Positions 8,726 to 53,473 of a stretch of DNA of 64,000 nucleotides are shown here, one piece after another. How positions within the stretch are numbered: position 1 is the first letter of the stretch; each line of letters opens with the position of its first letter. The notes beneath the pieces are model-generated. The model searched no databases. It was not told the origin of the DNA and saw only the letters and a program-made list of their open reading frames with translations. This DNA comes from a virus. The stretch spans positions 4,002 to 68,001 of the IMG/VR virus record IMGVR_UViG_3300046096_000525; one strand, written 5' to 3'. Made by a program: the position numbers and the translations under genes.

Positions 8726-9457
8726 ATGGCGTTAAGTAAAAATTATTTGCAGTTAGAGTTTGGTTCAGGAAAGTTTTTTGACTATTCAAAAGAGCCTAAA
8801 GATGGATATGACAAACACATGTCCACAAAAGGTAACGAAAGTTACAGAAAGTATTACAATGAAGGTGTTACCGGTGTGCTAGACTCTGTGTCTATTTATG
8901 ATGGTAAATACGGACAGCAGATTTCTATCAGTTTAAAAGACGGAGACGAAGTTTACTACTTACCAGTATCTATCTATGACCAAAAAGGGCAAGTAGATAA
9001 CACGTATGCAGAAAGCTTGATCAAATTGTTACCTCTTTTAGAGAAAGGTCAAAATCTAACTGTTCAAGGGTATAACTTTAAACCAGAAGATAGTCCATAT
9101 TCAAAAATTGGATTCAGTTTAAAAGTTAGCGGTGAAAAATTGAAGTCTACTATCACAAACAGTTATTACAAAAATGGAGAGTTAGTTCCTGGAGATGTAC
9201 CACCAATTGTGTGGGTTGAGAAATTAGGTAAAAAGAAACCTTCTGCAGCATCTCTTGAATTAAAAGATGCATACTTGTTAGAGCTGTTAGAAAAAGAAGA
9301 AAAGAGACTAACTTGGAAAAAGGAGAACACGGACCAATCCAATGACGAAGCTCCGGAACAAGAGAATGTTCCAGTAGCTACGCCACAAGAGGCTTTCGCT
9401 AGTCCGACAGATATGCCAAATATCGCAGATGAGGAAGATGATGATTTACCTTTTTAA
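8726..9457 (+). CDS. putative single-stranded DNA-binding protein (acidic C-terminal tail ending DDDLPF)
   Basis: C-terminus ...IADEEDDDLPF matches the SSB C-terminal tip (D-D-D-I/L-P-F) used for partner-protein docking; N-terminal fold not recognisable by eye. Confidence 0.45.
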   Translation: MALSKNYLQLEFGSGKFFDYSKEPKDGYDKHMSTKGNESYRKYYNEGVTGVLDSVSIYDGKYGQQISISLKDGDEVYYLPVSIYDQKGQVDNTYAESLIKLLPLLEKGQNLTVQGYNFKPEDSPYSKIGFSLKVSGEKLKSTITNSYYKNGELVPGDVPPIVWVEKLGKKKPSAASLELKDAYLLELLEKEEKRLTWKKENTDQSNDEAPEQENVPVATPQEAFASPTDMPNIADEEDDDLPF

Positions 9458-9486
9458 TATTAATAATAAACAACAAATTTTATAAC

Positions 9487-9753
9487 ATGTCAGATCAAAA
9501 CAAGATTTCAGAAGAGCATTTAGTATCATTAAAAGAATTTACAGGATTCTTTACAAATGCAAAAACAATCCTAGGAGAAGTTACTCTTAGATACGAGGCG
9601 GATAAGGAAAGTATCTTATCTCAAGTAAAAGCTAAAAACGAAGCTTTTGTAGAATTCCAAAAAGAGTTGGAAACAGCATACGGTAAAGTAAACATCAGCA
9701 TTGAGACTGGTGAGTACACAGAAGTAGAATTAGAAGACCAAAAAGCAGAGTAA
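9487..9753 (+). CDS. hypothetical protein (88 aa)
   Basis: ORF track. Confidence 0.5.
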   Translation: MSDQNKISEEHLVSLKEFTGFFTNAKTILGEVTLRYEADKESILSQVKAKNEAFVEFQKELETAYGKVNISIETGEYTEVELEDQKAE

Positions 9754-9757
9754 TATT

Positions 9758-10156
9758 ATGGTAGTAGAAGAAAAAAACCCAATGAACTACGGTTACTTTG
9801 GAGATGAGCAGATTACAATTTCTGCTAGAGAGTTCATGATGTTGAAAGCGGCTGTTGAACACGGTATTAACGCTACATCTGAGAGCTATATGCCAGAAGT
9901 ATTAAGATTTATAAACACAGAAGACTCTTCAATAGTAGAATCCCCTTCTGATGAAGACTTAACTTCAGGTAAAGTAGTAACTGTTACAGACAGAGAGGCT
10001 ACATTTAACCCTCGTAATGTTAGATTTCAGTATTCTACCAAACTTACACCAGATATGGTTGAAGGTCAAGAACTTATCATGGCTATTCATACAAGAAGTG
10101 TAGAGGCTGGTATTGCTAAAACTAAAGAGGAGTTAGAAGCTGCTTCAAAAAAATAA
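9758..10156 (+). CDS. hypothetical protein (132 aa)
   Basis: ORF track. Confidence 0.5.
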   Translation: MVVEEKNPMNYGYFGDEQITISAREFMMLKAAVEHGINATSESYMPEVLRFINTEDSSIVESPSDEDLTSGKVVTVTDREATFNPRNVRFQYSTKLTPDMVEGQELIMAIHTRSVEAGIAKTKEELEAASKK

Positions 10157-10161
10157 CAGCT

Positions 10162-10470
10162 ATGAATAACGAAGAGGAACTTTCTTCTTACTTAAAGAAG
10201 AGCTTATCTATAGTTAAAAAAGAATTAGGAGAGGTATGCACGTACCTCTCTTTTTCAAAAGAGAAATCAGTAAATAAGGATACTGGCATTTTGGAAGAAT
10301 ATGATGCTTTTGTTGCAAAGATTAAAAACAATCTTGGTGGAAAAGATAAAATTATATACCGCATAGAAAAACCCCTATATATGTTAGAGGCTGCAGATTT
10401 CAATTCGCTTTTGTATAACTTAAATGAAAAAATATATGAGCGAGGAGAGTCAAATACAGAAGCAGTATAA
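10162..10470 (+). CDS. hypothetical protein (102 aa)
   Basis: ORF track. Confidence 0.45.
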   Translation: MNNEEELSSYLKKSLSIVKKELGEVCTYLSFSKEKSVNKDTGILEEYDAFVAKIKNNLGGKDKIIYRIEKPLYMLEAADFNSLLYNLNEKIYERGESNTEAV

Positions 10471-10612
10471 TTCTTTTAAAGAGTCAGGGGATTTAAAAAT
10501 GCTATTTCCTAAACTTACAGGAAATTGGGAAAAAGACAAAGCTAGATTTACAAAAATCTGGGAAGAAAACCAAAGATTACTAGAAGAAGCAGAGCGTTTC
10601 TACAAAAAATAA
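10424..10612 (+). CDS. hypothetical protein (62 aa; true start may be Met at 10436)
   Basis: ORF track; overlaps 3' end of previous ORF in another frame. Confidence 0.4.
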   Translation: MKKYMSEESQIQKQYNSFKESGDLKMLFPKLTGNWEKDKARFTKIWEENQRLLEEAERFYKK

Positions 10613-10624
10613 AAAGTAAACAAG

Positions 10625-12163
10625 ATGTTAAAAATAGGAAAAGAGGCAAAAGAATCTCTTATCAGGGGTATTAACGTAGTATCAGATGCAGTCAAGACAA
10701 CGATGGGGGCAGAAGGTAAGACAGTTATTATCGAGAATAAAATGGGATTCAAACCTCACATTACTAAAGATGGGGTAACAGTAGCCGAGAGTATCTTACT
10801 AGAAGATGCTTACGAAGAGATTGGTGCCAAGTTGATCAAAGAAGCCGCAAGAAGAACGGTTGATTTAGTAGGAGATGGTACAACTACAGCCACGGTTATC
10901 ACACAAGAGTTGATAAACAGAGGTTTAGAGAAACTAGAATCCGGAGTATCACACGTAGAGTTAAGAGAAGGTATGGCTATTGCAATCGAAGATGTAAAGC
11001 TTGCCCTGAAAGGCTTGAAGAAAGAGGTTGGTGAAAAAGAGGTAAAGCAAATAGCTACTATCTCTGCAAATAATGATGCCGTAGTAGGAGAAATTATAGC
11101 TGACGTATACAAGAAGATTGGCGTAGAAGGAACGGTTGATGTACAAGAAGGTGTAGCAAAAGACACTACAGTTAATTACATCGAAGGTATGTCACTAGAT
11201 AGAGGTTGGGCTTTGCCACACTTTGTATCTGACACAAGTACCGGAACAGCAGAACTTAATGACACTTATATCTTGATCTACGATGGTAAGATCAATGCAG
11301 TAAACGATATTGCAGAACACGTAAGAAAGGCCCAAACAGAAGGTAAAGGATTGCACATTTTTGCTGAAGATTTAGACGAAGGTGTTATGACAATGCTTGT
11401 CAAAAGTAAAATGCAAGGTACATTCAGAGTTACCGTTACTATGAACCCAGATTTTGGAACCAATAGAACTAGTATCTTAGAGGACCTAGCAATATTTACT
11501 GGAGGAGAAGTTTTCACGCCTAAGTTCTCTACAAAAGTAGTACTAGGACATGCTGCAAAAACAATCTCAGACAAAAGTAGAACAGTTATAATTACAGATA
11601 CCGGAAGCCAAGAGCTTTTAGACAGAATTGAAGTGTTAAAAACTCAAGTTGAGAACACAGAAGACGTTGTAGACAAAGCTAAACTGGTAAAAAGGTTGTC
11701 AAACTTGAGAAATGCCGTGGCTATTGTAACAGTTGGTGGAGTTACCGATCTTGAAGTTAAAGAAAAGAAAGATAGGATTGATGATGCTGTTAGTGCTGTA
11801 CGATCTGCACTAGAAGGTGGATTTGTTGCCGGTGGAGGATCAACTTTATTATATATTTCCAAGTACAAAATGAAGAAAAAGCTGAAAGGCGGCCAAAAAG
11901 ATGGATATGAGTTGTTGAAAGCAGCTATCCAGAAGCCTTTTGAGCAAATTTTGTTGAATGCTGGGTTAGACAAAGACAAATACGAGCCTAGACTTAGAGT
12001 TTACGGTAAAGGTATCAATGTCAAAACTAGAAAAGTAGAAAATTTACTAGAAAGAGGAGTTATTGACTCAGCTAAAGTAGTAGAAGTTTCTTTAGAGAAT
12101 GCTAATTCAGTAGCCTCACTAGTACTACAAACAGATTGTATAATCACAAGTGCCGGACTATAA
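10625..12163 (+). CDS. groEL: GroEL-like chaperonin (Cpn60 family)
   Basis: DLVGDGTTTATVITQ matches GroEL AGDGTTTATVLA motif; VAGGGSTLLY ~ GroEL VAGGG; length 512 aa with equatorial/apical layout; lacks GGM C-terminal repeat. Confidence 0.8.
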   Translation: MLKIGKEAKESLIRGINVVSDAVKTTMGAEGKTVIIENKMGFKPHITKDGVTVAESILLEDAYEEIGAKLIKEAARRTVDLVGDGTTTATVITQELINRGLEKLESGVSHVELREGMAIAIEDVKLALKGLKKEVGEKEVKQIATISANNDAVVGEIIADVYKKIGVEGTVDVQEGVAKDTTVNYIEGMSLDRGWALPHFVSDTSTGTAELNDTYILIYDGKINAVNDIAEHVRKAQTEGKGLHIFAEDLDEGVMTMLVKSKMQGTFRVTVTMNPDFGTNRTSILEDLAIFTGGEVFTPKFSTKVVLGHAAKTISDKSRTVIITDTGSQELLDRIEVLKTQVENTEDVVDKAKLVKRLSNLRNAVAIVTVGGVTDLEVKEKKDRIDDAVSAVRSALEGGFVAGGGSTLLYISKYKMKKKLKGGQKDGYELLKAAIQKPFEQILLNAGLDKDKYEPRLRVYGKGINVKTRKVENLLERGVIDSAKVVEVSLENANSVASLVLQTDCIITSAGL

Positions 12164-12410
12164 TATGAAACCACTATTTCAAAGAGTTCTACTAAAAGTA
12201 GAAGTATTAAAGGAAGCCGAGTTATTCGGTGAAGAGCAAGATAAACCAAAAGTATACCTTGTTGATAAAGCAGATGACTGTCACGAATCTTTGCATAACC
12301 TATTAAATAGTCAAGTACTGTTTAATGGTGTTATTGCCGAGGTGGTAGAAGAGACAGAGGAGCATAAATTAGTATTAACTCACGAGACAAACCTTTTGAT
12401 GTCTTACTAA
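12150..12410 (+). CDS. groES: GroES-like co-chaperonin (Cpn10 family)
   Basis: MKPLFQRVLLKV ~ GroES IRPLHDRVIVKR; C-terminal KLVLTHETNLLMSY ~ EVLIMSESDILAIV; 86 aa; immediately downstream of (overlapping) GroEL-like gene. Confidence 0.6.
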   Translation: MPDYNMKPLFQRVLLKVEVLKEAELFGEEQDKPKVYLVDKADDCHESLHNLLNSQVLFNGVIAEVVEETEEHKLVLTHETNLLMSY

Positions 12411-12508
12411 AATCCCCTATAAACAACACAAGTTAATAGTCCTGTCGCTGTTGGTATACCCAGCAGTTCTGAATCCAGCCAAAAGGCGTAGGCGGTGTTA
12501 AGGTACAG
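12411..12508 (+). ncRNA. GC-rich structured RNA segment (5' flank of low-complexity ORF); contains GCGTAGGCGGTGTTAAGGT resembling tRNA acceptor/D region
   Basis: Local GC well above the window's AT-rich background; hairpin CTGTTGG-TATAC-CCAGCAG; shares GTTAAGGT box with 13106-13116. Confidence 0.25.
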
Positions 12509-12874
12509 GTGGCTGTAGGGTCAAATCTAAAAAATAAACATATCATGAATTCATCATCATTAACAGGAAGTACTACTTCTATCAGTGGTTATAGCACCAA
12601 TAGTTGTAACACTTTAGGTTCAAGCCTAACACTAACACCAAACACAATTTATTATCACGGAAATCAAAACCAAATGAGACAAGTAAAAGCAGTACTACTT
12701 AAAGTAGTAAAAGACCCAGAGACAAACGCTATTATAGACTCTACTGTAGATCTAGAGTTTTGGGTAAAACAAAAATCAGATGTGTCTTTTGAACTAGCAG
12801 CTATGAGCCAATTAGGTAGAGTGATAGATCCAGAAACAGAAGTATTAAAAGAGATATACTCGATATACTTATAG
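12509..12874 (+). CDS. questionable ORF (GTG start in track; first ATG at 12545); S/T-rich low-complexity N-half
   Basis: ORF track; embedded between two GC-rich structured RNA segments; no nuclease motifs (GIY-YIG/HNH/LAGLIDADG) seen. Confidence 0.25.
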   Translation: MAVGSNLKNKHIMNSSSLTGSTTSISGYSTNSCNTLGSSLTLTPNTIYYHGNQNQMRQVKAVLLKVVKDPETNAIIDSTVDLEFWVKQKSDVSFELAAMSQLGRVIDPETEVLKEIYSIYL

Positions 12875-13186
12875 GAAAAAGCCCTCTGCTGGTGCACCAG
12901 TATGGATCGAAGATGGGGATTACTGATACGATTGAAATAAAAACCTCTTCGGAGTTATCGTATAGGCGAGGAAGCCCACCGGAACGTAGGCCGGCACAGT
13001 TATAGCTCTGGGGATATTTGAAAAGCTATAAAAATTGGGGGCAGGGTAATATTGTTTGAGAGGTCAAAGGACAGAACTGAACCTGGACAGCCCCCATAAT
13101 ATTGCGTTAAGGTGTAATGGTTGCATGGAACTCTCATAAGGTTCACGGGGTGGTTCGATTCCACAGTACGCTACTAATTTTAAAGT
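12875..13186 (+). ncRNA. GC-rich structured RNA with nested helices and tetraloops, ending in a tRNA-like 3' module (anticodon arm GAACT-CTCATAA-GGTTC at 13127-13143; T-arm GGTGG-TTCGATT-CCACA at 13148-13164)
   Basis: Hairpins CTGGTGCACCAG, ATACGAT..(CTC-TTCG-GAG)..ATCGTAT, CCGG-AACGTAGG-CCGG, GGGGGC...GCCCCC long-range pair; CAU anticodon loop and canonical T-loop but no clean acceptor/D-arm. Confidence 0.3.
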
Positions 13187-13459
13187 ATGAGAGATAGTTA
13201 TATCAGAATGAGAAATTCCGGAAACTTGGATATTAATTGGTTCTTTAAATATTTCAGGCAAGAGGGAGGGAATGCAGATCCAAGTCTATTTTATGAAGCC
13301 TTTGAGTATGAAAGAATAGACAAGATAGAAGTTCCAGGGGGGTATATGGAAAATAAGATACCTAGAAAAAAAGAGGAATTAATACAAAACATGGATAGGA
13401 AGTTTGGATTGACTATCCTGTATGATCAAAACGGTAAATTTTTAAAAGTAGTAGACTAA
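13187..13459 (+). CDS. hypothetical protein (90 aa)
   Basis: ORF track. Confidence 0.45.
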   Translation: MRDSYIRMRNSGNLDINWFFKYFRQEGGNADPSLFYEAFEYERIDKIEVPGGYMENKIPRKKEELIQNMDRKFGLTILYDQNGKFLKVVD

Positions 13460-13460
13460 A

Positions 13461-13706
13461 ATGGCAGCAGTAGAAGCAATCAAATTTTCAGCAACATGGT
13501 GTGGACCATGCCGAGTAGTAGGTAAAGCTCTAGAAGGAGTAGACTTAAAACAAGTAGACATTGACACAGACGTTGATGGATTAGCAAAAGAGTACAATAT
13601 CCGTAGTGTACCTACAATAGTATTTGTAAAAGACGGCCAAGAGGTAGCAAGACATGCCGGACTTATTACTAAAGCAGAGTACGAAACTAAACTAGCCTCT
13701 TTGTAA
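13461..13706 (+). CDS. trxA: thioredoxin
   Basis: WCGPC active-site motif at residues 13-17, 81 aa, thioredoxin-fold length and C-terminal pattern. Confidence 0.8.
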   Translation: MAAVEAIKFSATWCGPCRVVGKALEGVDLKQVDIDTDVDGLAKEYNIRSVPTIVFVKDGQEVARHAGLITKAEYETKLASL

Positions 13707-13707
13707 G

Positions 13708-14394
13708 ATGATTAATATTTGGAAAGGTAAGAAATACCTAAAGTTAGAGCATTGTACATCCCCATGGTATACCACAAACAGAGGAAAAGACTTCTGCTTA
13801 AAGCATCATTTTACAGTATGGGGTTGGTCCCTAGCTACTAGAATGGTAAAGAGAGGATATAAAGAAGAGTACGTAAGAAAAGCAGAGTACGTATTTGGGC
13901 ATGTAAGTCCAGTACTTACTAAAAAGTATGATGCAGTAGATAAATATGAAGACCATCTAGACTTATTCTGCAAGACAGATTACCCAACACTGTACTGTTA
14001 CAATATTGAGGGAGATTTGCTAGGAAGAATAGACGACCTTAAGTGGATGTTCACCCATAACTGTGTAGCTGATAAAAATCTAGCAGGTGTGGCCTACTCT
14101 CAGACAGAGGGAGGATATATAGGATACTCACACAGAGCAAGACAAATATTCAAGATAGGGGACAAACTGTTTGACCCTAAGTACGAGCCACAAGAATTAG
14201 ACTATGAAGAGTGGGAGTGGGCAGGATTCTTACAAGACCAAGTAAGAGTACAGAAAGAGCATAACGATCTAGGAGAAGAGTACATTGTACCTATCAAAGA
14301 TGTAATACCTTTCAAGAAAAGAGGATCTGTACTTATCAAGACCCCTAAGGAAGCACGTAAAGCAGCACATAATTTCTCTAAGTATGTTAGCTAG
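13708..14394 (+). CDS. hypothetical protein (228 aa)
   Basis: ORF track. Confidence 0.5.
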   Translation: MINIWKGKKYLKLEHCTSPWYTTNRGKDFCLKHHFTVWGWSLATRMVKRGYKEEYVRKAEYVFGHVSPVLTKKYDAVDKYEDHLDLFCKTDYPTLYCYNIEGDLLGRIDDLKWMFTHNCVADKNLAGVAYSQTEGGYIGYSHRARQIFKIGDKLFDPKYEPQELDYEEWEWAGFLQDQVRVQKEHNDLGEEYIVPIKDVIPFKKRGSVLIKTPKEARKAAHNFSKYVS

Positions 14395-14617
14395 TATATT
14401 AGAACAGTACGAAGACGAAGAGTTCTTGATAGCCGATGGATTTAATCAAGCTGTAATAGGTGTAGAAGAGTCTACAATGAGACTGATCTATTCTGTCAAT
14501 AAGTGTATAGAGATATTAACAGAGGATATGTCAGAGGAAGATGCAATAGAGTACTTCAACTATAATGTCCTTAGAAGCTATGTTGGAGAGAAGACCCCAA
14601 TATGGTGTAACCCATAA
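14384..14617 (+). CDS. hypothetical acidic protein (77 aa)
   Basis: ORF track. Confidence 0.45.
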   Translation: MLASILEQYEDEEFLIADGFNQAVIGVEESTMRLIYSVNKCIEILTEDMSEEDAIEYFNYNVLRSYVGEKTPIWCNP

Positions 14618-14637
14618 GCACCACAAACCAAAAACCA

Positions 14638-14663
14638 CCCCGGAGAGATCTGGGGTTTTTTTT
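14638..14663 (+). terminator. rho-independent terminator CCCCGGA-GAGA-TCTGGGG + T8
   Basis: 7-bp GC stem with GAGA loop followed by TTTTTTTT, 21 nt after stop of 14384..14617. Confidence 0.7.
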
Positions 14664-14835
14664 ATACCCCCCCACCCTTTTATACCCTAGTGATTTAGTA
14701 GGGATTATAAATTTTTTTATATCAATTTTTTAAAACTGATTTTATGTGGGGGACACCCTAACCACCATACAGAAAACCCCGGCAAGATTCGGAGGATTTT
14801 ACCCCACCCCCCCTATGTGTCCAGCCAGATTACTT

Positions 14836-15384: not shown

Positions 15385-15393
15385 TTATATACT

Positions 15394-36726: not shown

Positions 36727-37704
36727 ATGAGTATCTTCACAGAAAGAAAGAATTACAAGCCGTTTGAGTACAGCGGAATTACAGACCCACTTATCAATGC
36801 AATGTGGTCTAGTCATTGGACACACAATGAGTTTAACTTCTTGAATGACATTCAAGACTACAAGACAAAGTTAACAGAGGAAGAACAAGGAGTAGTTAAA
36901 AGAGCCATACTACTTACCTCACAAGTAGAGGTTGCAGTTAAGTCTTATTGGTCGAGTATAGGTAAACTGTTACCTAAGCCAGAGATAGCAGACATGGGGG
37001 CAGTGTTTGGCGGAGTAGAAGTAGTACACTCAAAAGCTTATGCGGAGATTTTGTCTAAGCTAGGATTAGAAGAGCAGTTTGAAGATCTTTTTACAGAGCC
37101 GGTAATTGTAGGTAGAGTAGCTTATTTAACTAAGTACATCAACAAGATCTATAAGAATGACCACAAAAATATTTGTTATTCTTTAGTACTATTCACTTTG
37201 TTTACTGAGTACACAGCTTTATTTTCACAGTTCTACACTATCCTAGGGTTTAACAGATTTAGAGGAGTTTTGAAAGATGTAGCAAATGTTGTTCAATACA
37301 CTTCAAAAGAAGAGAATTTACACGCAGAAGGTGGTATTGCATTATTAAACCAAATTAGAGCAGAGCATCCAGAGTTATTTGATGAAGAGTTCATACAAAA
37401 AATACAAAGCGAAGTTCTAGAGGCATACAAAGCTGAGTCAGATTTGATTGATTGGATCCTAGAGGGTTACGAAAATGATTTCTTATCAGCAAGAATATTA
37501 AAAGGTTACGTTCAAATAAGATTAAACGATGCTTTACAAAAGATTGGAATGGAACCGGCTTTCACAGTAGACTCTGATATTAAAGAGCAGACACTATGGA
37601 TGGAAGAAGAGGTTTACGCAAGTGCCTTGACAGACTTCTTTCACAAGAAGCCTATTGATTACAGTAAGAAAATGAAAACATATAACGAAGACGATTTATT
37701 TTAA
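36727..37704 (+). CDS. nrdB: ribonucleotide reductase class I small subunit (R2/beta)
   Basis: Di-iron ligand regions VEVVHSKAYAEIL and SKEENLHAEGG; C-terminal tail ...YNEDDLF typical of R2 docking peptide; 325 aa. Confidence 0.8.
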   Translation: MSIFTERKNYKPFEYSGITDPLINAMWSSHWTHNEFNFLNDIQDYKTKLTEEEQGVVKRAILLTSQVEVAVKSYWSSIGKLLPKPEIADMGAVFGGVEVVHSKAYAEILSKLGLEEQFEDLFTEPVIVGRVAYLTKYINKIYKNDHKNICYSLVLFTLFTEYTALFSQFYTILGFNRFRGVLKDVANVVQYTSKEENLHAEGGIALLNQIRAEHPELFDEEFIQKIQSEVLEAYKAESDLIDWILEGYENDFLSARILKGYVQIRLNDALQKIGMEPAFTVDSDIKEQTLWMEEEVYASALTDFFHKKPIDYSKKMKTYNEDDLF

Positions 37705-37705
37705 G

Positions 37706-39352
37706 ATGGGAGATTTTAGTTGGTTAAACAAAGATTCAAGAACTTTTCTAGAGAAAGATTATTTATTAGAGGGTGTTACCCCCGAAGATCGTATTAGAGA
37801 GATAGCTGATACGGCAGAGAATATCCTAGGTATTGAAGGATTTTCAGACAAATTCTATGACTATATGGGTAGAGGTTTCTACTCTTTGGCTACACCGGTT
37901 TGGATGAACTTTGGTTTAGATAGAGGTTTACCTATCTCATGTTATGGTATAGACATTCAAGATGATACCATGGATATTTTAAGAGCAACAGCAGAGATTG
38001 GTGCTTTAACAAAGATGGGTGGAGGTACTGCCGGATACTTTGGTAAGCTAAGAGGTAGAGGTGCCCCTATTAAGAACAATGGTGTATCTAATGGAGCAGT
38101 TAGCTTTTTACTACCTTTCCAAACTACAACAGATGTTATTACACAAGGACAAGCACGTAGAGGTTACTTTGCAGCTTATCTTCCTGTGGATCACCCAGAT
38201 ATCGAGGAGTTCTTACAATGTAGAAACGAAGGTCATATTATCCAAAACATTGCTCTAGGAGTTTGTATTCCAGATGAATGGATGGAGTCAGCAGAGGCCG
38301 GAGATAAAGACAAGAGAAAGATCTTAGCTAAGATCCACCAAAAAAGAGCTGAGTCAGGGTTCCCTTACATATTCTTTAGTGGTAATGTTAACAATAACAA
38401 GCCAAAAGTTTATAAGGATAAAGGTATGGAGATCAATCACTCTCAGATGTGTACAGAGATCTTAGAATACACAGATGAACACAAATCTTTTGTTTGTTGT
38501 TTATCTTCTATTAACTTGTTACATTGGGACGAGATTGTTGAGACTGATGCAGTAGAGACTTTAGCTTATTTCTTAGATGCAGTTTACTCTGAGTTCATTC
38601 AGAAAGCAGACGGTATCCCTTTTATGGAGAAAGCTTTATTGTTCGCCAAAGAACACAGAAGTATTGGTATTGGAGTTCTTGGATGGCACAGTTTATTACA
38701 ATCTAAGCTTATCCCTTTTGAGGGCCTAGAGGCTAAGATGTTGAATGCTGAAATTTTCAGAACTATCAATGATAAGAGTTTAATTGCTAGTATGCAGTTG
38801 GCTACTATGTTTGGGGAGCCAGAAATGTTAAAAGGTTATGGACAAAGATTTACTACTAGATTGGCAATTGCCCCTACGACTAGTTCTTCTTTTATTCTAG
38901 GACAAGTTAGCCCTAGTATTGAGCCATTACAATCAAACTATTTCATTAAAGATTTGGCCAAAGGTAAGTTTGTTTACAGAAACCCTTACTTAAAAAAGTT
39001 ATTAAAAGATAAAGATCAAGATACACCAGAGGTTTGGAACAGCATCCTTTTAAAAGGAGGTTCTGTACAACACTTAGATATCTTAGACGAAAAAGAAAAG
39101 TTTGTATTCAAGACTTTTGGAGAGATCAGCCAACTAGAGATAGTTCAACAAGCTGCTCAGAGACAGAAGTTTATAGATCAAGGTCAGTCATTGAATTTAA
39201 TGATACACCCTGAGACATCTTTGAAAGATGTGAATGCTTTGTTTTTTGAAGCATGGAACCTAGGAATTAAAACTTTATACTACCAAAGAAGTGTTAATAT
39301 GGCACAAGAGGTTAGTAGAAACCTTATGGAGTGTTCTAGCTGTGAAGGCTAA
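37706..39352 (+). CDS. nrdA: ribonucleotide reductase class I large subunit (R1/alpha), short form without ATP cone
   Basis: Active-site SQMCTEI (NxCxE), C-terminal CSSCEG redox cysteine pair; adjacent to nrdB. Confidence 0.8.
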   Translation: MGDFSWLNKDSRTFLEKDYLLEGVTPEDRIREIADTAENILGIEGFSDKFYDYMGRGFYSLATPVWMNFGLDRGLPISCYGIDIQDDTMDILRATAEIGALTKMGGGTAGYFGKLRGRGAPIKNNGVSNGAVSFLLPFQTTTDVITQGQARRGYFAAYLPVDHPDIEEFLQCRNEGHIIQNIALGVCIPDEWMESAEAGDKDKRKILAKIHQKRAESGFPYIFFSGNVNNNKPKVYKDKGMEINHSQMCTEILEYTDEHKSFVCCLSSINLLHWDEIVETDAVETLAYFLDAVYSEFIQKADGIPFMEKALLFAKEHRSIGIGVLGWHSLLQSKLIPFEGLEAKMLNAEIFRTINDKSLIASMQLATMFGEPEMLKGYGQRFTTRLAIAPTTSSSFILGQVSPSIEPLQSNYFIKDLAKGKFVYRNPYLKKLLKDKDQDTPEVWNSILLKGGSVQHLDILDEKEKFVFKTFGEISQLEIVQQAAQRQKFIDQGQSLNLMIHPETSLKDVNALFFEAWNLGIKTLYYQRSVNMAQEVSRNLMECSSCEG

Positions 39353-43080: not shown

Positions 43081-44151
43081 ATGAATAAGTTAGACAAACA
43101 GTATACAGAATTACTACAAGACATTATTGATAATGGTGTAGTTAAAGAAGACAGGACAGGTACAGGAACCATTTCAGTATTCGGAAGACAAATACGACAT
43201 AATATGTCAGAGGGATTTCCTCTGCTTACAACTAAGAAAATGCCTTGGAAAACAATTGTAACTGAGCTACTTTGGTTCTTACGTGGGGATACAAATATTA
43301 AGTACTTGGTTGATAATGGGTGTAACATTTGGAATGGAGATGCTTATAAAAATTATCTATTATTAATGATTGGTAATGAACCTGAAAAGATTTTATCAAT
43401 GACTGATTTTATTGATAAGATAAAGAACGATGATAAGTTTGCTAAGAAGTGGGGTGATTTAGGTCCAATTTATGGTAAGCAATGGAGAAAGTGGAAACAA
43501 AAAGATATATTGGAATGGGGTTATAAAGAAGGTGAAGTAGAAGTAGACCAAATCCAAAACCTAATCAATGACCTTAAAATAAATCCAGACTCAAGACGAT
43601 TAATGGTCAATGCTTGGAATGTTGGGGAATTGAACCAAATGGTTCTACCACCTTGTCATTATGGGTTTCAAGTTTATACAAGAAAGTTGAGTTTTGAACA
43701 AAGAATTGATTTGTATATTAAAAAATATGAAGCTATAGATGGTTCTAATTTTAACCAATACGAGCATACTATCCCAACCAGAGCAATCTCTTTAATGTGG
43801 AACCAACGTTCAGTAGACACATTTTTAGGGTTACCGTTTAACATTGCTTCTTATGGTTTACTATTAGAGATTATAGCAAATGAAGTAGATATGATCCCAG
43901 ACCAATTAATTGGTAATCTTGGAGATGTACATTTGTATTCAAATCATATTGAACAAGCTAAAGAACAAATTGGAAGAGAGGGGTTTGAATTACCAAGCCT
44001 TGTTTACCTAGACGAATACCATTACCTAACAGATGCAAAGTTGGTAGGAGATATATCATTTAGTGAAAAGATAGACAGGTTTAGACCTGATTTTTTTAAG
44101 ATTGAAAACTATCAATCGCACCCTACTATTAAAGCCCCTTTATCAAATTAA
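43081..44151 (+). CDS. thyA: thymidylate synthase (ThyA family) with two ~30-aa insertions; dUMP-specific Asn retained
   Basis: N-terminus NGVVKEDRTGTGTISVFGRQIRHNMSEGFPLLTTKKMPWKTIVTELLWFLRGDTNIKYL matches ThyA; SRRLMVNAWNVGELNQMVLPPCHYGFQVYT (active-site Cys in PCH); QRSVDTFLGLPFNIASY; DVHLYSNH. Confidence 0.8.
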   Translation: MNKLDKQYTELLQDIIDNGVVKEDRTGTGTISVFGRQIRHNMSEGFPLLTTKKMPWKTIVTELLWFLRGDTNIKYLVDNGCNIWNGDAYKNYLLLMIGNEPEKILSMTDFIDKIKNDDKFAKKWGDLGPIYGKQWRKWKQKDILEWGYKEGEVEVDQIQNLINDLKINPDSRRLMVNAWNVGELNQMVLPPCHYGFQVYTRKLSFEQRIDLYIKKYEAIDGSNFNQYEHTIPTRAISLMWNQRSVDTFLGLPFNIASYGLLLEIIANEVDMIPDQLIGNLGDVHLYSNHIEQAKEQIGREGFELPSLVYLDEYHYLTDAKLVGDISFSEKIDRFRPDFFKIENYQSHPTIKAPLSN

Positions 44152-47526: not shown

Positions 47527-47900
47527 ATCCAAGATTTGAACCGCAGCACATATTAGCTATAGATTTCGATCTAACTATATGTATGAGTGATTACCCAAAG
47601 CTTGGCCCTATGAGAAAAGGAGCCAAAGAAGCTATTACAAAGTTGTATAATGATGGGTTTGGTATTGTGATTAATACATGTAGAGAAGGTCACCCTTTGT
47701 CCGATGCAATGCATTGGCTAAAAGATAATGACATTCCCTACCACTATGTTAATTGTAATTTTCCACATTTAATAGAGTACTACAAAGCTGATTGTCGTAA
47801 GATCTCAGCAGATATGTATATTGACGACAAAGGTGTAGAGGAGCTTCCATCATGGGACAAAATTTATAAAATAATAAACAAAAAATTTGTATGCAAGTAA
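47523..47900 (+). CDS. HAD-superfamily phosphatase / nucleotidase
   Basis: ILAIDFDLTIC (DxD nucleophile motif I), small cap-less HAD size. Confidence 0.5.
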   Translation: MNPRFEPQHILAIDFDLTICMSDYPKLGPMRKGAKEAITKLYNDGFGIVINTCREGHPLSDAMHWLKDNDIPYHYVNCNFPHLIEYYKADCRKISADMYIDDKGVEELPSWDKIYKIINKKFVCK

Positions 47901-48313
47901 ATATAAAAAGATTATCAGAAAAGGCAGTAATTCCTACTTATGGGAAGCCTGGAGATGCCGGAATGGATCTAACATGTATCAGTGAAGAGTGGAGCGAGGA
48001 TAACTCAATGGTTACCTATGACACAGGTATTGCTATGGAAATTCCAGAGGGTTATGTTGGTTTAGTCTTTCCTAGAAGCTCGGTATCAAAAACATCACTA
48101 ATATTGTCTAACTCTGTTGGGGTTATTGACTCTGGTTATAGAGGTTCTATTATGTTTAAGTTTCGTTACCCTGAAGAAGGTATGGTGTATGAAATTGGTG
48201 AGAGAGTTGGACAAATTATAATTGTACCTTATCCACAAATAACGTTTAATGAGGTTCAAGAACTTTCATCAACTGACCGTGGAGAGGGTGGTTTTGGTAG
48301 TACAGGAAAATAA
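47891..48313 (+). CDS. dut: dUTP diphosphatase
   Basis: GKPGDAGMDL (motif 1/2), RSSVS (motif 3), GVIDSGYRG (motif 4), 140 aa. Confidence 0.8.
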   Translation: MQVNIKRLSEKAVIPTYGKPGDAGMDLTCISEEWSEDNSMVTYDTGIAMEIPEGYVGLVFPRSSVSKTSLILSNSVGVIDSGYRGSIMFKFRYPEEGMVYEIGERVGQIIIVPYPQITFNEVQELSSTDRGEGGFGSTGK

Positions 48314-48348
48314 ATAAGATTTAATTAGGTTAATTGAGAAGTAAGTTG

Positions 48349-48356
48349 TATCTTTG
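48349..48356 (+). promoter_or_regulatory. -7 box TATCTTTG preceding a 33-codon membrane peptide ORF (48361-48462)
   Basis: Consensus -7; -33 weak. Confidence 0.4.
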
Positions 48357-48463
48357 CACAATGAAAGAAAGATTTAGATTTTGGGCAGTTGTTATTTGGT
48401 ACCTATTTATTCTGTCAGCAGAAATAGTAGGGCTAATTTGGTTAATTAAAAATATTTTTTAGC

Positions 48464-49051
48464 ATGTATATAAACTTTGAAATCGCAAAGAAGCAGGGGT
48501 TTTCCCCTACAGATGTTGTAAACTTACAACTTATTTCTCAAAACAAAACAGAAAGTTTGTGGGAGATTATCACAGAGACTATGACCCTATCTACTTTAGA
48601 TAGATATCAGTCTTTAGAGTATGTCTCTTTAGTAAAGGCAAAGAACAAAAGCGATACTATTCAGAATCGTGTTAGGTTAACCCCTAAAGGTAATGCTTTC
48701 TTAGAAGAGCTGCAAATACCTATGATAAATGAAGATGATTTAAAACTGTATACTTGGTTAGAGTCTGTTTATAAGTCTGAGAATAAAGAGATAGGAAATA
48801 GAAAGAAAACAAAGTTGTATATAGCATTGTTTAGAGCTAACTCTGGCATTGATAGAAATAAGTTAGCTTTCCTTTGTAAAGTCTTTATGAATGATACTAG
48901 TCAGTTTGAGTGGTCAAAAGTATTAGAGTATCTATTTTTTAAACCTGCCAATATGTACACCACTAGGTTTGATATTGAAGAGTCTAGATTATACAAGTAC
49001 TACTTGAAGCACCAAACAATGTTTGATAATAAATTTAAAACCTTAGAATAA
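48464..49051 (+). CDS. hypothetical protein (195 aa)
   Basis: ORF track. Confidence 0.5.
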   Translation: MYINFEIAKKQGFSPTDVVNLQLISQNKTESLWEIITETMTLSTLDRYQSLEYVSLVKAKNKSDTIQNRVRLTPKGNAFLEELQIPMINEDDLKLYTWLESVYKSENKEIGNRKKTKLYIALFRANSGIDRNKLAFLCKVFMNDTSQFEWSKVLEYLFFKPANMYTTRFDIEESRLYKYYLKHQTMFDNKFKTLE

Positions 49052-49052
49052 A

Positions 49053-50216
49053 ATGCAAATACAAAAATTTAGAGACCTTACTAAAAAAGCTTTTCAAGAG
49101 ATTAAGCAATACCAAATTGGTAACAAAGGTATTATAAAAACAGGACTACCTTATTTTGATGATGTGTTCCCTGTAGTTAATGGTTCAGTAATTGTATTTT
49201 CAGCAGGTTCAGGTATTGGTAAGAGTTATACTTTGGCTAAGATGGTAGATAACATCTTGAATAAAGAAATAAACCCTACCTCTGACAATTTTGCAGTACT
49301 TAACATATCCCTTGAGATGAGAGTTCTTAGTTTAGTTCTTCGTGGTATGGCCAAGAATATTAAATCTAAGTCTAAGAAAGAGATCTTGTTACAAGAGTTT
49401 ACAGAAGAAGAGAAAGTTCAAGCTAAAGCTTATTTTGACTCTTTGCAAGATGATAGAGTTAGCATTTCACAAGTACCTACCACACCAAACAAGTTTTATG
49501 AGGGCTGTAAAGAGTTCTTAGAATTGAATAAAGACAAAGACTCTGTTGTTATTACTGTCGATCACTTGGCATTGATTTCTGGTGATTCGGGAGAAAGTAG
49601 AAATACTATTATTGAGAAGTTTATCGAGAGAGTGAATGACTTAAAGATGGAGTATGAGAATGTAATTTTTATATTGCTGTCCCAAACAAACTCTGAGATG
49701 ATTAAAAGAGCTAAAGATAAAGATATCATGGCTCAACCTCAACCTTCAGATTTGTATTACTCTCAGTTTACTTTCCAAGTTGCAGACTTTGTAGCTGTTA
49801 TGACTAACCCTACCAGACTTGGTATCAAGGAGTACAGTAAAGTGGATCCGGAAAGATATCCAAACTTACAGAAGTTCTTTTTAGAAGAGGATTTGAAAGG
49901 TAGAGTTTCTTTAGAACCTTTTGGTGTAAACTATGTACACTTATTAAAATGTAGAGAGGCCGATGGTATGTACCTAGATATTTATGCAGAAGAGTTAAAC
50001 ATACCGGATGTTGAAAATATAAGAAAGAACAGACACAAAGATATGTCTTCTCCTAAAACAATAGAAGTGCCTATGTTTAAAAAGGAAGAGCCTTATGTTG
50101 TTGAGAAGCCTTTACCTCCACCACCTTTAGCTACACTTGCTGATGCCTTTGGTGAAACGTTTAGTAGCCCAGCAGCAGTAGACTTCGGAGAAGATGATGA
50201 AGATGCACCATTTTAA
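49053..50216 (+). CDS. DnaB-like (SF4) replicative helicase domain protein with acidic C-terminal tail ending DDEDAPF
   Basis: GLPYFDDVFP..VIVFSAGSGIGKSY (H1/Walker A), ITVDHLALISG (H2), LLSQTNSEMIKRA (H3 SQLNR-like); C-terminus FGEDDEDAPF. Confidence 0.65.
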   Translation: MQIQKFRDLTKKAFQEIKQYQIGNKGIIKTGLPYFDDVFPVVNGSVIVFSAGSGIGKSYTLAKMVDNILNKEINPTSDNFAVLNISLEMRVLSLVLRGMAKNIKSKSKKEILLQEFTEEEKVQAKAYFDSLQDDRVSISQVPTTPNKFYEGCKEFLELNKDKDSVVITVDHLALISGDSGESRNTIIEKFIERVNDLKMEYENVIFILLSQTNSEMIKRAKDKDIMAQPQPSDLYYSQFTFQVADFVAVMTNPTRLGIKEYSKVDPERYPNLQKFFLEEDLKGRVSLEPFGVNYVHLLKCREADGMYLDIYAEELNIPDVENIRKNRHKDMSSPKTIEVPMFKKEEPYVVEKPLPPPPLATLADAFGETFSSPAAVDFGEDDEDAPF

Positions 50217-50222
50217 AATTAC

Positions 50223-50252
50223 ACCCAGCTATTAATTTAGTTGGGTTTTTTT
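50223..50252 (+). terminator. rho-independent terminator ACCCAGCTA-TTAATT-TAGTTGGGT + T7
   Basis: 9-bp stem (one G-U), T-run, 7 nt after helicase stop. Confidence 0.7.
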
Positions 50253-50346
50253 ATGTTCACTTTTTTACACTGTTCACGCAAACGTGAACGTTCAGTCACA
50301 ATGAACAAACAATTTTAATGAACATTTAAAAATATTTTACAAAAAG

Positions 50347-50378
50347 CTTGTGAGATTAAAATGTTGTTCGTATCTTTG
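50347..50378 (+). promoter_or_regulatory. sigma-A-type promoter CTTG(50347-50350)-N20-TATCTTTG(50371-50378)
   Basis: Consensus match upstream of ATG 50403. Confidence 0.55.
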
Positions 50379-50402
50379 CATAGAAATTAAAAACAAATTA
50401 TT

Positions 50403-50672
50403 ATGAGACATGAATGCAGGGTTATACCAAAAGAAGAAATAATGGCAAATAGAAGTAGTGCCTACGAGTTTATAGACTTTGATTCTATAGAAGAAGAAGA
50501 GTCTAAAGTAAAAGGGGTGTTTAATTGTTTTAGAAAAGATTTTACAGAAATGTATCCTAAGTCTGATGGAGTTGAAAAGACTTTAGTTAGACCTACAGAT
50601 GTTTACTCTAAGATAACACTATCCTTAAACAGAAAACTGAATATTCACAAAATAAATAAAGGTAAGAAGTAA
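50403..50672 (+). CDS. hypothetical protein (89 aa)
   Basis: ORF track. Confidence 0.4.
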   Translation: MRHECRVIPKEEIMANRSSAYEFIDFDSIEEEESKVKGVFNCFRKDFTEMYPKSDGVEKTLVRPTDVYSKITLSLNRKLNIHKINKGKK

Positions 50673-51040
50673 TGGAGTACACAAACATAAACGAAGAGTT
50701 AGAGGATTGGAAAAATTCTTGGCGAGAAAGTAAGTTTATATCTGCTATGAACGAGAAGCAAAGACAAAAGGATTTTCGTGAAGGTTATATGAGAGGTTTT
50801 AAGATGGCTACAATGATATCAGATAAGAAAAATCTAGATATGATAGTTAATAGTTTAGACTCTGGGTTATTGAATGAAATGATAGCCTATGCTGATAGAG
50901 AGAAAGAAGAAGTAACAAGAGTTGAAGTAATACAACATTCTGAGCCACACAATGGAAGAGCTTATACCAACTACAACGCTAAAGATGTTGAAGTACAATA
51001 CCAAGATGGTGGTAAAACATTAAAAATATTTTGTAAGTAA
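50672..51040 (+). CDS. hypothetical protein (122 aa)
   Basis: ORF track. Confidence 0.45.
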   Translation: MEYTNINEELEDWKNSWRESKFISAMNEKQRQKDFREGYMRGFKMATMISDKKNLDMIVNSLDSGLLNEMIAYADREKEEVTRVEVIQHSEPHNGRAYTNYNAKDVEVQYQDGGKTLKIFCK

Positions 51041-51528
51041 TGATAGTAGAAAATTGGTTGCCAGTAAAAGATTATGAGGGTTTTTATGAAGTCTCAGATT
51101 TAGGTAGAGTTAGAAGTCTTAGGTTTGGTAAGGTTAAGATAATGAAACAAAGTCTTAGCTCAAATAAGTACTTAATTGTTAACTTATGGAATGATAAAAA
51201 AATGAAGAGTTATAGTGTTCATATCTTAGTAGCAAGTGCTTTTTTAGGGCATGTACCAAATGGTCGTATTACAGTTGTAAACCATATTAATTTTGATAGA
51301 CTTGATAATAGATCGGTAAATTTAGAGGTAATATCATTTAGAGAAAATGCTAATAAAAAACACTTACCTTCTACAAGTAAGTACACAGGTGTTTATTGGA
51401 ATAAAGCTTCACGTAAGTGGGTGTCACGTATTTCTATTTGTGGAAGAGTTAAGTATTTAGGAAGGTTTACTACAGAGCTAGATGCTCACTACGCATACGA
51501 AGAGGAATTAGCAAAAATAACAAAATAA
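51040..51528 (+). CDS. HNH homing endonuclease (NUMOD4 + HNH_3 type), free-standing, immediately upstream of DNA polymerase
   Basis: WLPVKDYEGFYEVSDLGRVRSL (NUMOD4 Y-x-VS-x-G-x-VRS), HILVASAFLGHVPNGRITVVNHINFDRLDNRSVNLEV (HNH_3 H...NH...N..NL). Confidence 0.7.
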   Translation: MIVENWLPVKDYEGFYEVSDLGRVRSLRFGKVKIMKQSLSSNKYLIVNLWNDKKMKSYSVHILVASAFLGHVPNGRITVVNHINFDRLDNRSVNLEVISFRENANKKHLPSTSKYTGVYWNKASRKWVSRISICGRVKYLGRFTTELDAHYAYEEELAKITK

Positions 51529-51529
51529 T

Positions 51530-53473
51530 ATGAATTTAGATAAGATATACGTAATAGATGCAGAGTCAGATGGACTTGTAGATCAGTCTACAAAGATCTG
51601 GTGTATGGGAATAAGTTGGATGGATAAGTCTGGTAAGTGGAAAGTTAAATCTACTGTTGACTATGAGGATATGCGTAATATCTTGACTAACCCTGACAAC
51701 ACATTGGTCTGCCATAACATAGTTAGGTTTGATGTACCCTTGTATGAAAAGATACTTGGTATAAAAGTTACAGCTAGTGTAATAGACTCTTTAGGATTGT
51801 CTTGGTACTTGTACCCAGAAAGAGGCCAAAGAGACCATGGTTTAGCTTCTTGGGGAGAAGAGTTCGGTGTACCTAAACCGAAGATCGACAACTGGGAAAA
51901 CCTTTCTATAGAAGAATACAGAAACAGGGTAGAAGAAGATGTTAAGATTAATACTAACCTTTGGGTTAAACAATACAACTATCTTAAAAAGATCTACCAA
52001 GATCCTAGAGATATAGTAAGAATTATCAGCTACCTTAATTTTAAGCTAACATGCCTTAAGATACAAGAGGAAGATAAAATATTGATTGATGTAGAACAAT
52101 GTCAAAAAAACTTAGACTATCTACAAGGTATTGAGAATGAAAAGAAAGCTTTATTAGAAGCTGCTATGCCAAAAATACCTATCAAGAAGTCTTTGACAAA
52201 GCCTAAGGTTTGTTATAAAAAAGATGGTAGTCTTAGTGTTGCCGGAGCTAGATGGTTTGAGATCTTAGAACAAAATGGTATCAGAGAAGATTATGATGGT
52301 GAGGTTACCATGATTACAGGTTATGAAGAACCTAATGCCGGAAGTCCTACACAAGTAAAAGATTGGTTGATGGGCCTTGGTTGGAAACCTTTATTGTTTG
52401 AAGACGGTAGAAATGGTAAAGTGCCACAAGTTAGAGATAAAGAAAAGATGTTATGTAAGAGTGTATTAGCTTTAGGTGCAAAGGAGCCGGCTATTGAGCA
52501 CTTAGATGGTTTATCTGTAGTAACACACAGAGCAGGTTACTTGAAGGGCTTCTTAGAAAGAGCTGATGAGAATGGTTATGCAGTAGCTTATGCTCACGGT
52601 TTTACTAAGACTTTGAGGTTGAAACATGCCAAACCGTTTGTTAATTTACCAAAGCCGACAGCCCCTTATGGAGAATTTATCCGTAGTGTAATCATAGCTC
52701 CTAAAGGTTCTGTGCTTATTGGTTCGGATGTTAGTAGTTTGGAAGACAAGATGAAACAGATTTCTATTTATCCTTATGATCCTGGATATGTTGAAGATAT
52801 GAACAGGCCGGGTTGGGATGCCCACTTGGATCTAGGTGTTAGAAGTGGTATTATCTCACAAGAAGAGTCTGACTTCTTTCGTTGGTATAAAACAAAAGAT
52901 AAAAAGAGAGAAGACTTACCTGAGATATTCAAGGTTTATAAAGATGAAGAGTTGTCTGAGCAATTTGAAAAAGTAAGTAAAAAAAGAGCAACTTCTAAAA
53001 CAGGTAACTATGCTTTAACTTATGGTTGTGGAGTACCTAAGCTTAAAGAGTCTACTGGTCTTACTACAAAAGATGCTAAGATTTTATACGATGGGTATTG
53101 GGGTCGTAACTGGTCTGTTAAGAAATATGCAGAAGACAGAGAGGTAATAGTTGTAGATGGTAAAACTTGGATTTGGAACCCTATTACAAACTTTTACTAC
53201 TTTTTAGCCTCTGAAAAAGATAGATTTTCTGCTTGTAATCAGTCAGCAGGTGTTAGAGTCTTTGATGGTTATGTGTATGAAATGATTAAACGTGGTGTTA
53301 GACCCATTTTTCAAGCCCATGACGAGGTTTTATTAAGAGTTAAGAACGAAGACATAGATTCAACAATTGAGGCTCTTAAACAGTCTATAAATAGAGTAAA
53401 TAAACAATACAACTTTCCTGTAGAAATTGAGATTGATATCCAAACAGGGGAGTCTTATGCAGCAGTACATTAA
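51530..53473 (+). CDS. family A DNA polymerase (Pol I/T7-like) with N-terminal 3'-5' exonuclease domain
   Basis: Exo I IDAESDGL; motif A LIGSDVSSLEDKMKQI (DYSQIELR-like); motif B KKRATSKTGNYALTYGCG (RxxxKxxNFGxxYG-like); motif C IFQAHDEVLL (HDE). Confidence 0.8.
   Translation: MNLDKIYVIDAESDGLVDQSTKIWCMGISWMDKSGKWKVKSTVDYEDMRNILTNPDNTLVCHNIVRFDVPLYEKILGIKVTASVIDSLGLSWYLYPERGQRDHGLASWGEEFGVPKPKIDNWENLSIEEYRNRVEEDVKINTNLWVKQYNYLKKIYQDPRDIVRIISYLNFKLTCLKIQEEDKILIDVEQCQKNLDYLQGIENEKKALLEAAMPKIPIKKSLTKPKVCYKKDGSLSVAGARWFEILEQNGIREDYDGEVTMITGYEEPNAGSPTQVKDWLMGLGWKPLLFEDGRNGKVPQVRDKEKMLCKSVLALGAKEPAIEHLDGLSVVTHRAGYLKGFLERADENGYAVAYAHGFTKTLRLKHAKPFVNLPKPTAPYGEFIRSVIIAPKGSVLIGSDVSSLEDKMKQISIYPYDPGYVEDMNRPGWDAHLDLGVRSGIISQEESDFFRWYKTKDKKREDLPEIFKVYKDEELSEQFEKVSKKRATSKTGNYALTYGCGVPKLKESTGLTTKDAKILYDGYWGRNWSVKKYAEDREVIVVDGKTWIWNPITNFYYFLASEKDRFSACNQSAGVRVFDGYVYEMIKRGVRPIFQAHDEVLLRVKNEDIDSTIEALKQSINRVNKQYNFPVEIEIDIQTGESYAAVH

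Follow-up and report, generated by a model that had tools for sequence, protein, structure and literature searches.

The stretch of viral DNA considered here comprises 64,000 nucleotides of the IMG/VR virus record IMGVR_UViG_3300046096_000525 (positions 4,002 to 68,001) and is called the window below. [quoted passage not shown] In T7, the acidic tails of the helicase gp4 and of the SSB gp2.5 bind basic patches of the polymerase gp5, and one of these patches lies in the thioredoxin-binding domain (TBD). A sequence-only reading of the window had proposed an analogous polymerase-centred assembly, in which the SSB candidate and the helicase, both ending in an acidic tail with terminal Phe, would dock next to a thioredoxin encoded by the phage itself. 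According to the analysis reported here, the polymerase and the tails hold as a working model, but the front basic patch of the T7 polymerase is missing and the link with thioredoxin is the weakest part of the proposal. The reading that we favour, tentatively and at somewhat less than an even chance, takes the tails as shared docking peptides of the type of the bacterial SSB C-terminus (SSB-Ct), the phage polymerase as their likeliest receptor, and the thioredoxin as a reductant of the phage NrdA outside this assembly. The features that bear on the tails and their putative receptor are as follows (aa, amino acids; OB, oligonucleotide/oligosaccharide-binding):

8726-9457, plus strand: SSB-like protein, 243 aa, with a beta-rich OB-type core, a helix and a disordered acidic tail
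9431-9454, plus strand: tip of the SSB-like tail, EEDDDLPF, whose last six residues are the bacterial SSB C-terminal hexapeptide
49053-50216, plus strand: DnaB-type replicative helicase, 387 aa (PF03796, DnaB_C, 1.4e-15; phrog_37407, 3e-75)
50028-50213, plus strand: C-terminal extension of the helicase, residues 326-387, net charge -7, DAFG...EDDEDAPF, with the tip EDDEDAPF at 50190-50213
51530-53473, plus strand: T7-like family A DNA polymerase with 3'-5' exonuclease, 647 aa (PF00476; phrog_17, 3.6e-83)
52166-52345, plus strand: thumb-tip insertion of the polymerase, residues 213-272 (60 aa), aligned by hhalign onto the TBD of T7 gp5 (262-338)

A check of the sequence confirmed the positions and the tail strings of all four genes as they had been given earlier, the SSB-like open reading frame (ORF) terminating in ...IADEEDDDLPF and the helicase in ...FGEDDEDAPF. 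When a tail was defined by at least five acidic residues among the last ten and a terminal Phe, it was found in only 2 of the 216 window ORFs of at least 50 aa, namely the SSB-like protein and the helicase. The nearest cultured relatives of the phage are the Cellulophaga baltica phages phi17:2 and phi4:1 (Lightbulbvirus, 145 kb), with a helicase identity of 40%. In the complete genome of phi17:2, such a tail again occurs in only two ORFs out of 359, these being gp094 (...AEEDDDLPF) and the helicase gp198 (...EEEDDKPF); the record of this phage carries no annotation of these tails. The tails are not due to chance.

Both tails are conserved in relatives, which supports the sequence-only reading on this point. 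Among 120 homologues of the SSB candidate, the L-P-F ending is nearly invariant (no exception at P242 and F243, and at least 90% for L241), and an 'AF' element is found upstream of the tip in 59 of 119 members of the family. All 13 related helicases from IMG/VR loci end in [A/S/K]PF, 12 of them with an acidic run before the tip; within the lineage of the window, the 11 helicases examined have AF[G/D] followed by [A/S/K]PF without exception, and the acidic run is present in 10. The likeness of the two tails extends past the tip itself, as is seen from the comparison of EAF...DDDLPF in the SSB candidate with DAFG...DEDAPF in the helicase. On a wider scale, when representatives of helicase clusters at 50% identity were compared, a terminal Phe was found in 43 of the 60 closest full-length sequences vs 2 of the 32 most distant ones, and Phe stands within the last three residues in 52 of the 60 closest. 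Judging by these clusters, a large group of DnaB-like phage helicases forms a subfamily characterized by the terminal Phe. Three relatives (L007, L008 and L011) have a helicase that is only about 38% identical, with a polymerase of 79-83% and a gene upstream of the helicase of about 70% identity, and their divergent helicases keep the tail in the form of ...DDDAPF, ...DDDKPF or ...DDNAPF. Such a pattern of identities suggests that the helicase was exchanged in a mosaic fashion and that the tail was preserved.

The protein encoded at 8726-9457 is best read as SSB-like, probably a member of a new family with SSB-type architecture; the label 'SSB' is given on the basis of predicted fold, architecture and synteny, and not of membership in a known SSB family. 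By residue number, the OB-type core spans 1-172, the helix 174-195 and the disordered acidic linker with the tail 199-243. In the AlphaFold model, which has a predicted local distance difference test score (pLDDT) of 79, the core is beta-rich, one long helix follows it and the last 45 residues are disordered. The core has a net charge of 0 and 24 aromatic residues, and the net charge of the tail is -13. The candidate gave no sequence match in Pfam, PHROG or PDB (phmmer), and a Pfam scan of all 65 members of the family, that is, the candidate and its 64 aligned homologues, gave no family match either. A tblastn search against phages yielded only two weak partial matches. The best structural match is the phiC31 gp3 family, for which binding of single-stranded DNA (ssDNA) has been shown, but the similarity of the predicted fold is modest. 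Unlike TG1 gp25 and phiC31 gp3, phage SSBs that are also recombination directionality factors, the candidate has no zinc site, because its 243 aa contain no cysteine, and there is no serine integrase within the window. A Foldseek search against viral models matched the candidate to a phi17:2 protein of 242 aa, the same length as gp094; by sequence, gp094 and the candidate show a weak colinear hhalign match (E 3e-4), and their relationship is clear by predicted fold only.

The SSB-Ct motif of bacteria, DDDIPF in Escherichia coli, has been described (PMC5872125), and the candidate carries its D-D-D-[I/L]-P-F form, as DDDLPF, after a linker that is disordered in the model. It resembles bacterial SSBs in its architecture, in which a disordered linker joins an OB core to an acidic tip, and SSBs of Flavobacteriia and Firmicutes have the identical hexapeptide. 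It differs from them in the core, which by sequence is not PF00436, and in the presence of the same kind of tip on the helicase of the same phage.

The helicase consists of a RecA-like domain only and the C-terminal extension of about 60 residues. DnaB_C was the only domain found, with neither a primase domain nor a DnaB N-terminal domain, and no sequence match was obtained in PDB. Homology of its tail with that of T7 gp4 was considered and rejected, the BLASTP match being confined to the region of the Walker A motif. Directly upstream lies a gene that may be of importance for the function of the helicase:

48464-49051, plus strand: 195-aa protein (phrog_32643), always directly upstream of the helicase

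This position is the same in the window, in phi17:2 (gp197, then gp198) and in three further contigs (L013, L137 and L140). Since the helicase has no DnaB N-terminal domain, the 195-aa protein may be its partner, acting as a loader or as a split N-domain.

The polymerase is a T7-like family A enzyme and a relative of gp5 over its full length. The hhalign comparison with T7 gp5 gave probabilities of 99.2-99.8 and E values of 1.8e-19 to 2.4e-28, with residues 6-647 aligned to gp5 1-704; the model is confident (pLDDT 91.5), and all of its top 26 Foldseek matches in PDB are T7 gp5, with a TM score of about 0.70. The hallmarks of T7-like PolAs (CDD cd08643; cluster 5 of Czernecki et al. 2023) are Tyr at position B3 of motif B, DxE as the exonuclease motif and His at the C-terminus. 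All of them were found in the window polymerase, in KTGNYALTYG, VIDAESDG and ...YAAVH, respectively, and D10, E12, Y494 and H647 are invariant in the alignment of the family. Several homologues of this polymerase, among them P0170, P0183, P0215 and P0238, are 975-1026 aa long and have a LAGLIDADG domain, which suggests that these long forms carry inteins.

The comparison with T7 gp5, proposed earlier as a check on the thumb of the polymerase, revealed an insertion at the TBD position. Residues 213-272 follow the thumb helix 188-212 and precede helix H1 (273-282), and their number exceeds the 50 aa taken as the minimum for an insertion at this place; the length of 60 aa is constant in the 14 family members measured. 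The secondary structure is predicted as a strand (216-223), a helix (237-248) and a strand (258-266), with pLDDT of 81-88. The N-terminal half, MPKIPIKKSLTKPKVCYKKDGSLS, is Lys-rich (7 Lys, net charge +6) and conserved in the family, and the C-terminal half has a net charge of -6. The PolA of phi17:2, which differs from the window enzyme in its length of 794 aa, has the insertion too, with KKDxSLS.

In our opinion, these observations are consistent with the following mechanism. The acidic run would guide each tail towards a basic surface, and a hydrophobic pocket would take up the terminal Pro-Phe. As both the SSB-like protein and the helicase present the same tip, they would compete for one receptor and hand it over to each other. 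The leading candidate for this receptor, by analogy with T7, is the Lys-rich segment of the 60-residue thumb insertion, which may be comparable to the T7 'exchange patch'. The hexameric helicase could thus tether polymerases at the fork, and the tail of the SSB-like protein could engage the polymerase on meeting the coated template.

The similarity to the T7 replisome is considerable in some respects: the polymerases belong to the same subfamily, with gp5 as the closest solved structure, the thumb-tip insertion at the TBD position has a basic segment, and acidic tails with a terminal Phe are found on both the SSB and a hexameric helicase. Other components are different. The SSB candidate is unrelated to gp2.5 (hhalign probability 0.7%) and the helicase, with its DnaB_C domain only, matches gp4 just around the Walker A motif, so that neither an SSB of the gp2.5 family nor a fused primase-helicase of the T7 type is present; in addition, the genome is about 125-130 kb in size, vs 40 kb in T7.

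A number of facts weigh against the polymerase as the receptor. The insertion as a whole has a net charge of about 0, and it is predicted to be a folded beta-alpha-beta unit and not a floppy loop, being 60 aa long against 76 aa in T7. The front basic patch of T7 gp5, K587/K589/R590/R591, has no counterpart in the window polymerase, because it falls in a 12-residue deletion: K587 and W588 align with F556 and Y557, and K589 to K600 lie in the gap. Current work on T7 regards the front patch as the site where the gp4 tail is loaded and as the anchor of the gp2.5 tail, and its loss argues against docking since the patch is needed there for polymerase loading. The tips end in Pro-Phe, as in the bacterial SSB-Ct, whereas the T7 tails end in DGDF and DTDF. 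Finally, one helicase with an acidic tail ending in Phe, a member of the same family, is encoded directly beside a Taq/Klenow-like PolA, from which it follows that such a tail can do without a T7-like polymerase.

The strongest of the alternatives arises from the bacteria that the phage probably infects. The host is likely to be a member of Flavobacteriia because the closest cultured relatives are Cellulophaga phages, which have two gene orders in common with the window, the first comprising an SF2 helicase, RecA, a small ORF (gp093 in phi17:2) and the SSB-like gene (gp094), and the second comprising the 195-aa protein, the helicase, the T7-like PolA and a primase. According to this alternative, the tails of the phage SSB and helicase plug into host proteins that read such tips, or compete for them, and the polymerase is not the main receptor; the candidate readers include primase, an accessory subunit of the clamp loader and enzymes of recombination or repair. 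We consider it rather unlikely as the principal explanation, but the host proteins are serious candidates, and the two kinds of receptor are not mutually exclusive.

When bacterial genomes were scanned for DDDLPF preceding a stop codon, 89 of 120 loci proved to encode canonical SSBs, many of them from Flavobacteriia; the phage tip is identical to those of SSBs in the host clade. One locus, on the chromosome of Avrilella dinanensis (L165), encodes a DnaB. Another 12 of the 120 loci represent a second DDDLPF-ending family of Bacteroidota, consisting of small proteins of 116-130 aa that are tentatively assigned to DUF3127-like OB folds and were found in Chryseobacterium, Pedobacter, Crocinitomicaceae, Aquimarina and a metagenome-assembled genome of Flavobacteriia (L141, L144, L154, L176 and L204).

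The DnaB proteins of the host lineage provide an unexpected parallel. All 120 of the nearest Flavobacteriaceae DnaB cluster representatives, including those of Flavobacterium johnsoniae and Myroides, end in an acidic tail of the type ...D[S/D/N][D/E][V/L/I/M]PF, and 119 of them terminate in PF. The tail is borne on an extension of about 47 residues that is missing from all solved DnaBs, and no description of it was found in the literature searched. An [A/V]FG element stands 15-17 residues before the end in most of these proteins (85 of 120), and the extension of the phage helicase has such an upstream AF[G] element in common with them. Hence, SSB and DnaB of the host lineage bear the same tips, yet the host replicates its DNA with DNA polymerase III; this is a further point against the polymerase-centred reading, for it means that the two-tail logic also exists without a T7-like polymerase. 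The near invariance of L-P-F in the SSB family, expected of a peptide with many clients, and the occurrence of the tail beside a polymerase that is not T7-like also speak for host receptors. On the other hand, a polymerase, a helicase, a candidate primase, RecA and nucleases are all encoded by the phage itself, and its need for host proteins should be small. The tip of the helicase, unlike the SSB-Ct, varies at position -3 (A/S/K/N). The AFG element, considered as a link between all phage helicase tails and the host DnaB, turned out to be a weak lead, since it was found in only 2 of 60 members of the wider phage helicase family.

A broader idea that joins these data, and to which we give about one chance in a few, is that of a replisome code shared by Flavobacteriia and their phages, both of which would put an SSB-Ct-like Pro-Phe tip on the helicase as well as on the SSB, with the phage copying both onto an SSB and a helicase of its own that are unrelated to those of the host. 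If this is true, the phage could use the same receptor pocket as the host proteins, or outcompete them for it, and the pair of tails would be a takeover device and not just a tether for a T7-like polymerase.

The role of thioredoxin must be considered separately. The relevant features are the following (RNR, ribonucleotide reductase):

13461-13706, plus strand: mini-thioredoxin, 81 aa, with WCGPC (PF00085, 1.6e-12)
36727-39352, plus strand: class I RNR, with NrdB at 36727-37704 and NrdA at 37706-39352 (PF00268, 6e-49; PF02867, 3.6e-93)

The thioredoxin is devoid of the N-terminal beta1-alpha1 unit, its Pfam match beginning at position 23 of the 103 in the profile, and does not have the full five-strand fold. 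Its redox motif is well preserved: WCGPC and the cis-Pro (VPT) are present, and W13, C14, P16, C17 and P51 are invariant at a mean identity of 44%. No other redoxin-like small ORF was found in the early gene block. Its gene lies downstream of the SSB-like gene at a distance of about 4 kb, and is separated from the polymerase gene by 38 kb and from the RNR genes by 23 kb. The C-terminus of NrdA, ECSSCEG, has a CxxC tail conserved in relatives, and this Cys pair is the site that a thioredoxin would reduce; the C-terminus of NrdB, NEDDLF, is a classical R2 tail.

Members of the mini-thioredoxin family are encoded by at least 335 viral contigs, and their gene neighbourhoods were studied within 3 kb in a sample of 80 of them. 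RecA was found there in 38 contigs, PhoH in 29 and NrdA in 18, with NrdA directly adjacent in 3 of the 80, as NrdB-NrdA-Trx operons. No PolA, helicase or SSB-like gene was found at this distance in any of the 80 contigs. The sequence-only reading had connected the thioredoxin with the polymerase, adding that it might also serve the phage RNR. The second clause proved to be the better supported one by these neighbourhoods, and the link with the polymerase is unsupported. Most likely, as far as gene content may indicate, the phage thioredoxin takes part in nucleotide metabolism as the reductant of the phage RNR and not in the polymerase assembly. It would act as an electron donor, re-reducing the C-terminal Cys pair of NrdA.

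Cyanophage Syn5, which also has a phage thioredoxin, a T7-like polymerase and RNR, provides an instructive parallel, as the same two candidate roles were weighed there. Its thioredoxin is the one phage thioredoxin studied experimentally and was judged to be an unlikely processivity factor: experiments and AlphaFold3 favoured the role in RNR, and host thioredoxins, not that of the phage, were predicted on the polymerase. Unlike the window, where the distance is 38 kb and the protein belongs to the shorter mini-thioredoxin family, Syn5 has its thioredoxin gene adjoining the polymerase gene.

Against this background, the complete T7 arrangement, with the thioredoxin on the thumb insertion as a processivity subunit and both tails docked on the polymerase-thioredoxin complex, appears improbable. 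It agrees with the type of the polymerase, with its insertion at the TBD position and with the synteny of the thioredoxin gene, which holds in 12 of 12 close relatives. T7 gp5 is known to use the active-site surface of E. coli thioredoxin, and the phage thioredoxin probably keeps this surface. Nevertheless, the gene neighbourhoods given above associate the family with NrdA and not with PolA, and the invariance of the catalytic Cys pair and the cis-Pro also speaks against this arrangement. The insertion is 16 residues shorter than that of T7 and is predicted to fold alone, and the thioredoxin of the window, an 81-aa phage product associated with RNR, differs from that of T7, which is recruited from E. 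coli. The structure prediction for Syn5 and the opinion of its authors count on the same side. Moreover, a TBD of at least 50 aa is found in only about 29% of T7-like PolAs, and thioredoxin binding has been proven for T7 only. In phi17:2, no phage thioredoxin gene was found, although the thumb insertion, both tails and NrdAB are present; this might be counted as one more objection, but as evidence against a processivity role the absence was rejected, because host thioredoxin could fill either role.

The least probable explanation, which we regard as very unlikely, centres on the SSB-like protein: its tail would autoinhibit the DNA-binding groove in cis and that of the helicase would enter this groove in trans, so that the helicase could displace the SSB or load onto SSB-coated DNA without participation of the polymerase; the acidic tails of T7 gp2.5 and other SSBs do compete with ssDNA for the binding cleft, as is generally known and described by molecular dynamics, and the resemblance of the two tails past the tip and their occurrence with different types of polymerases agree with this idea, but a purely electrostatic mimic of DNA has no need of Pro-Phe, which is the most conserved part of the tail.

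Returning to the reading in which the tails dock mainly on the polymerase, it should be viewed in the context of the whole window. Its G+C content is low, about 34%, and the early and replication genes form a long plus-strand block from about 4.5 kb to 58.2 kb. A megablast search with 24 kb of the window against INPHARED revealed no close phage genome; in IMG/VR, one 24-kb fragment is 100% identical, and relatives of 107-131 kb are present. Two more genes of the block belong to replication and recombination:

5997-6980, plus strand: bacterial-type RecA (PF00154, 2.9e-105), 1.7 kb upstream of the SSB-like gene
55949-56848, plus strand: candidate primase with a BT4734-like N-terminal domain (PF08800, 3e-13), its gene separate from that of the helicase

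The RecA gene at this distance places the SSB-like gene in a context of recombination and replication, and phi17:2 has a prim-pol at the position equivalent to that of the candidate primase. Just upstream of RecA, the plus-strand gene 4554-5939 encodes an SF2 helicase (ResIII/Helicase_C) that matches the ExoX-like C-terminal domain (PF20600) over a short segment at its C-terminus, residues 415-440.

Genes of homing endonucleases flank the core replication genes. One of them, of the SegE-like GIY-YIG type (6983-7444, plus strand), is situated between RecA and PhoH, and another, with NUMOD4/HNH/AP2 domains (51040-51528, plus strand), stops 2 bases short of the polymerase start. The 3' end of the polymerase gene is overlapped by a gene (53427-53978, plus strand) for a protein with a YkuD-type L,D-transpeptidase domain and an N-terminal hydrophobic segment, an unusual neighbour in a replication module. 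The gene that starts 2 bases past the thioredoxin stop codon (13708-14394, plus strand) gave a Pfam match to Tad6, an inhibitor of type I Thoeris (1.2e-13), which suggests an anti-defence gene inside the early block. The GroEL-like chaperonin encoded at 10625-12163, plus strand (Cpn60_TCP1, 2.6e-54), is conserved in the phage family; in viral contigs L014-L017 and L024, a chaperonin of 36-38% identity is encoded directly upstream of the T7-like polymerase gene. The thymidylate synthase homologue (43081-44151, plus strand) has 356 aa against the 266 positions of the Pfam profile, and the long form is present in phi17:2 too; the difference in length implies that the fold has taken up an insertion of about 85-90 residues.

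Summarizing the data, the principle of docking by an acidic tail is itself already known from T7 and from the bacterial SSB-Ct. What is new is its appearance in a large phage of Flavobacteriia whose SSB belongs to an unrelated family and whose helicase stands alone, the ending of the tips in Pro-Phe, identical to the host type, and the breadth of the helicase subfamily ending in Phe. A practical conclusion concerns annotation, in which a phage thioredoxin next to a T7-like polymerase should not be read as a processivity factor. A likely function may now be given to an abundant unannotated family, including phrog_30150 relatives such as phi17:2 gp094. The DnaB of Flavobacteriaceae with an SSB-like tip brings up the question of what recognises such a tip on the side of the host and on that of the phage. 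If the tails act as suggested here, the principle of T7, one acidic peptide with a Phe tip placed on both the helicase and the SSB, would extend to large marine and freshwater phages of Flavobacteriia.

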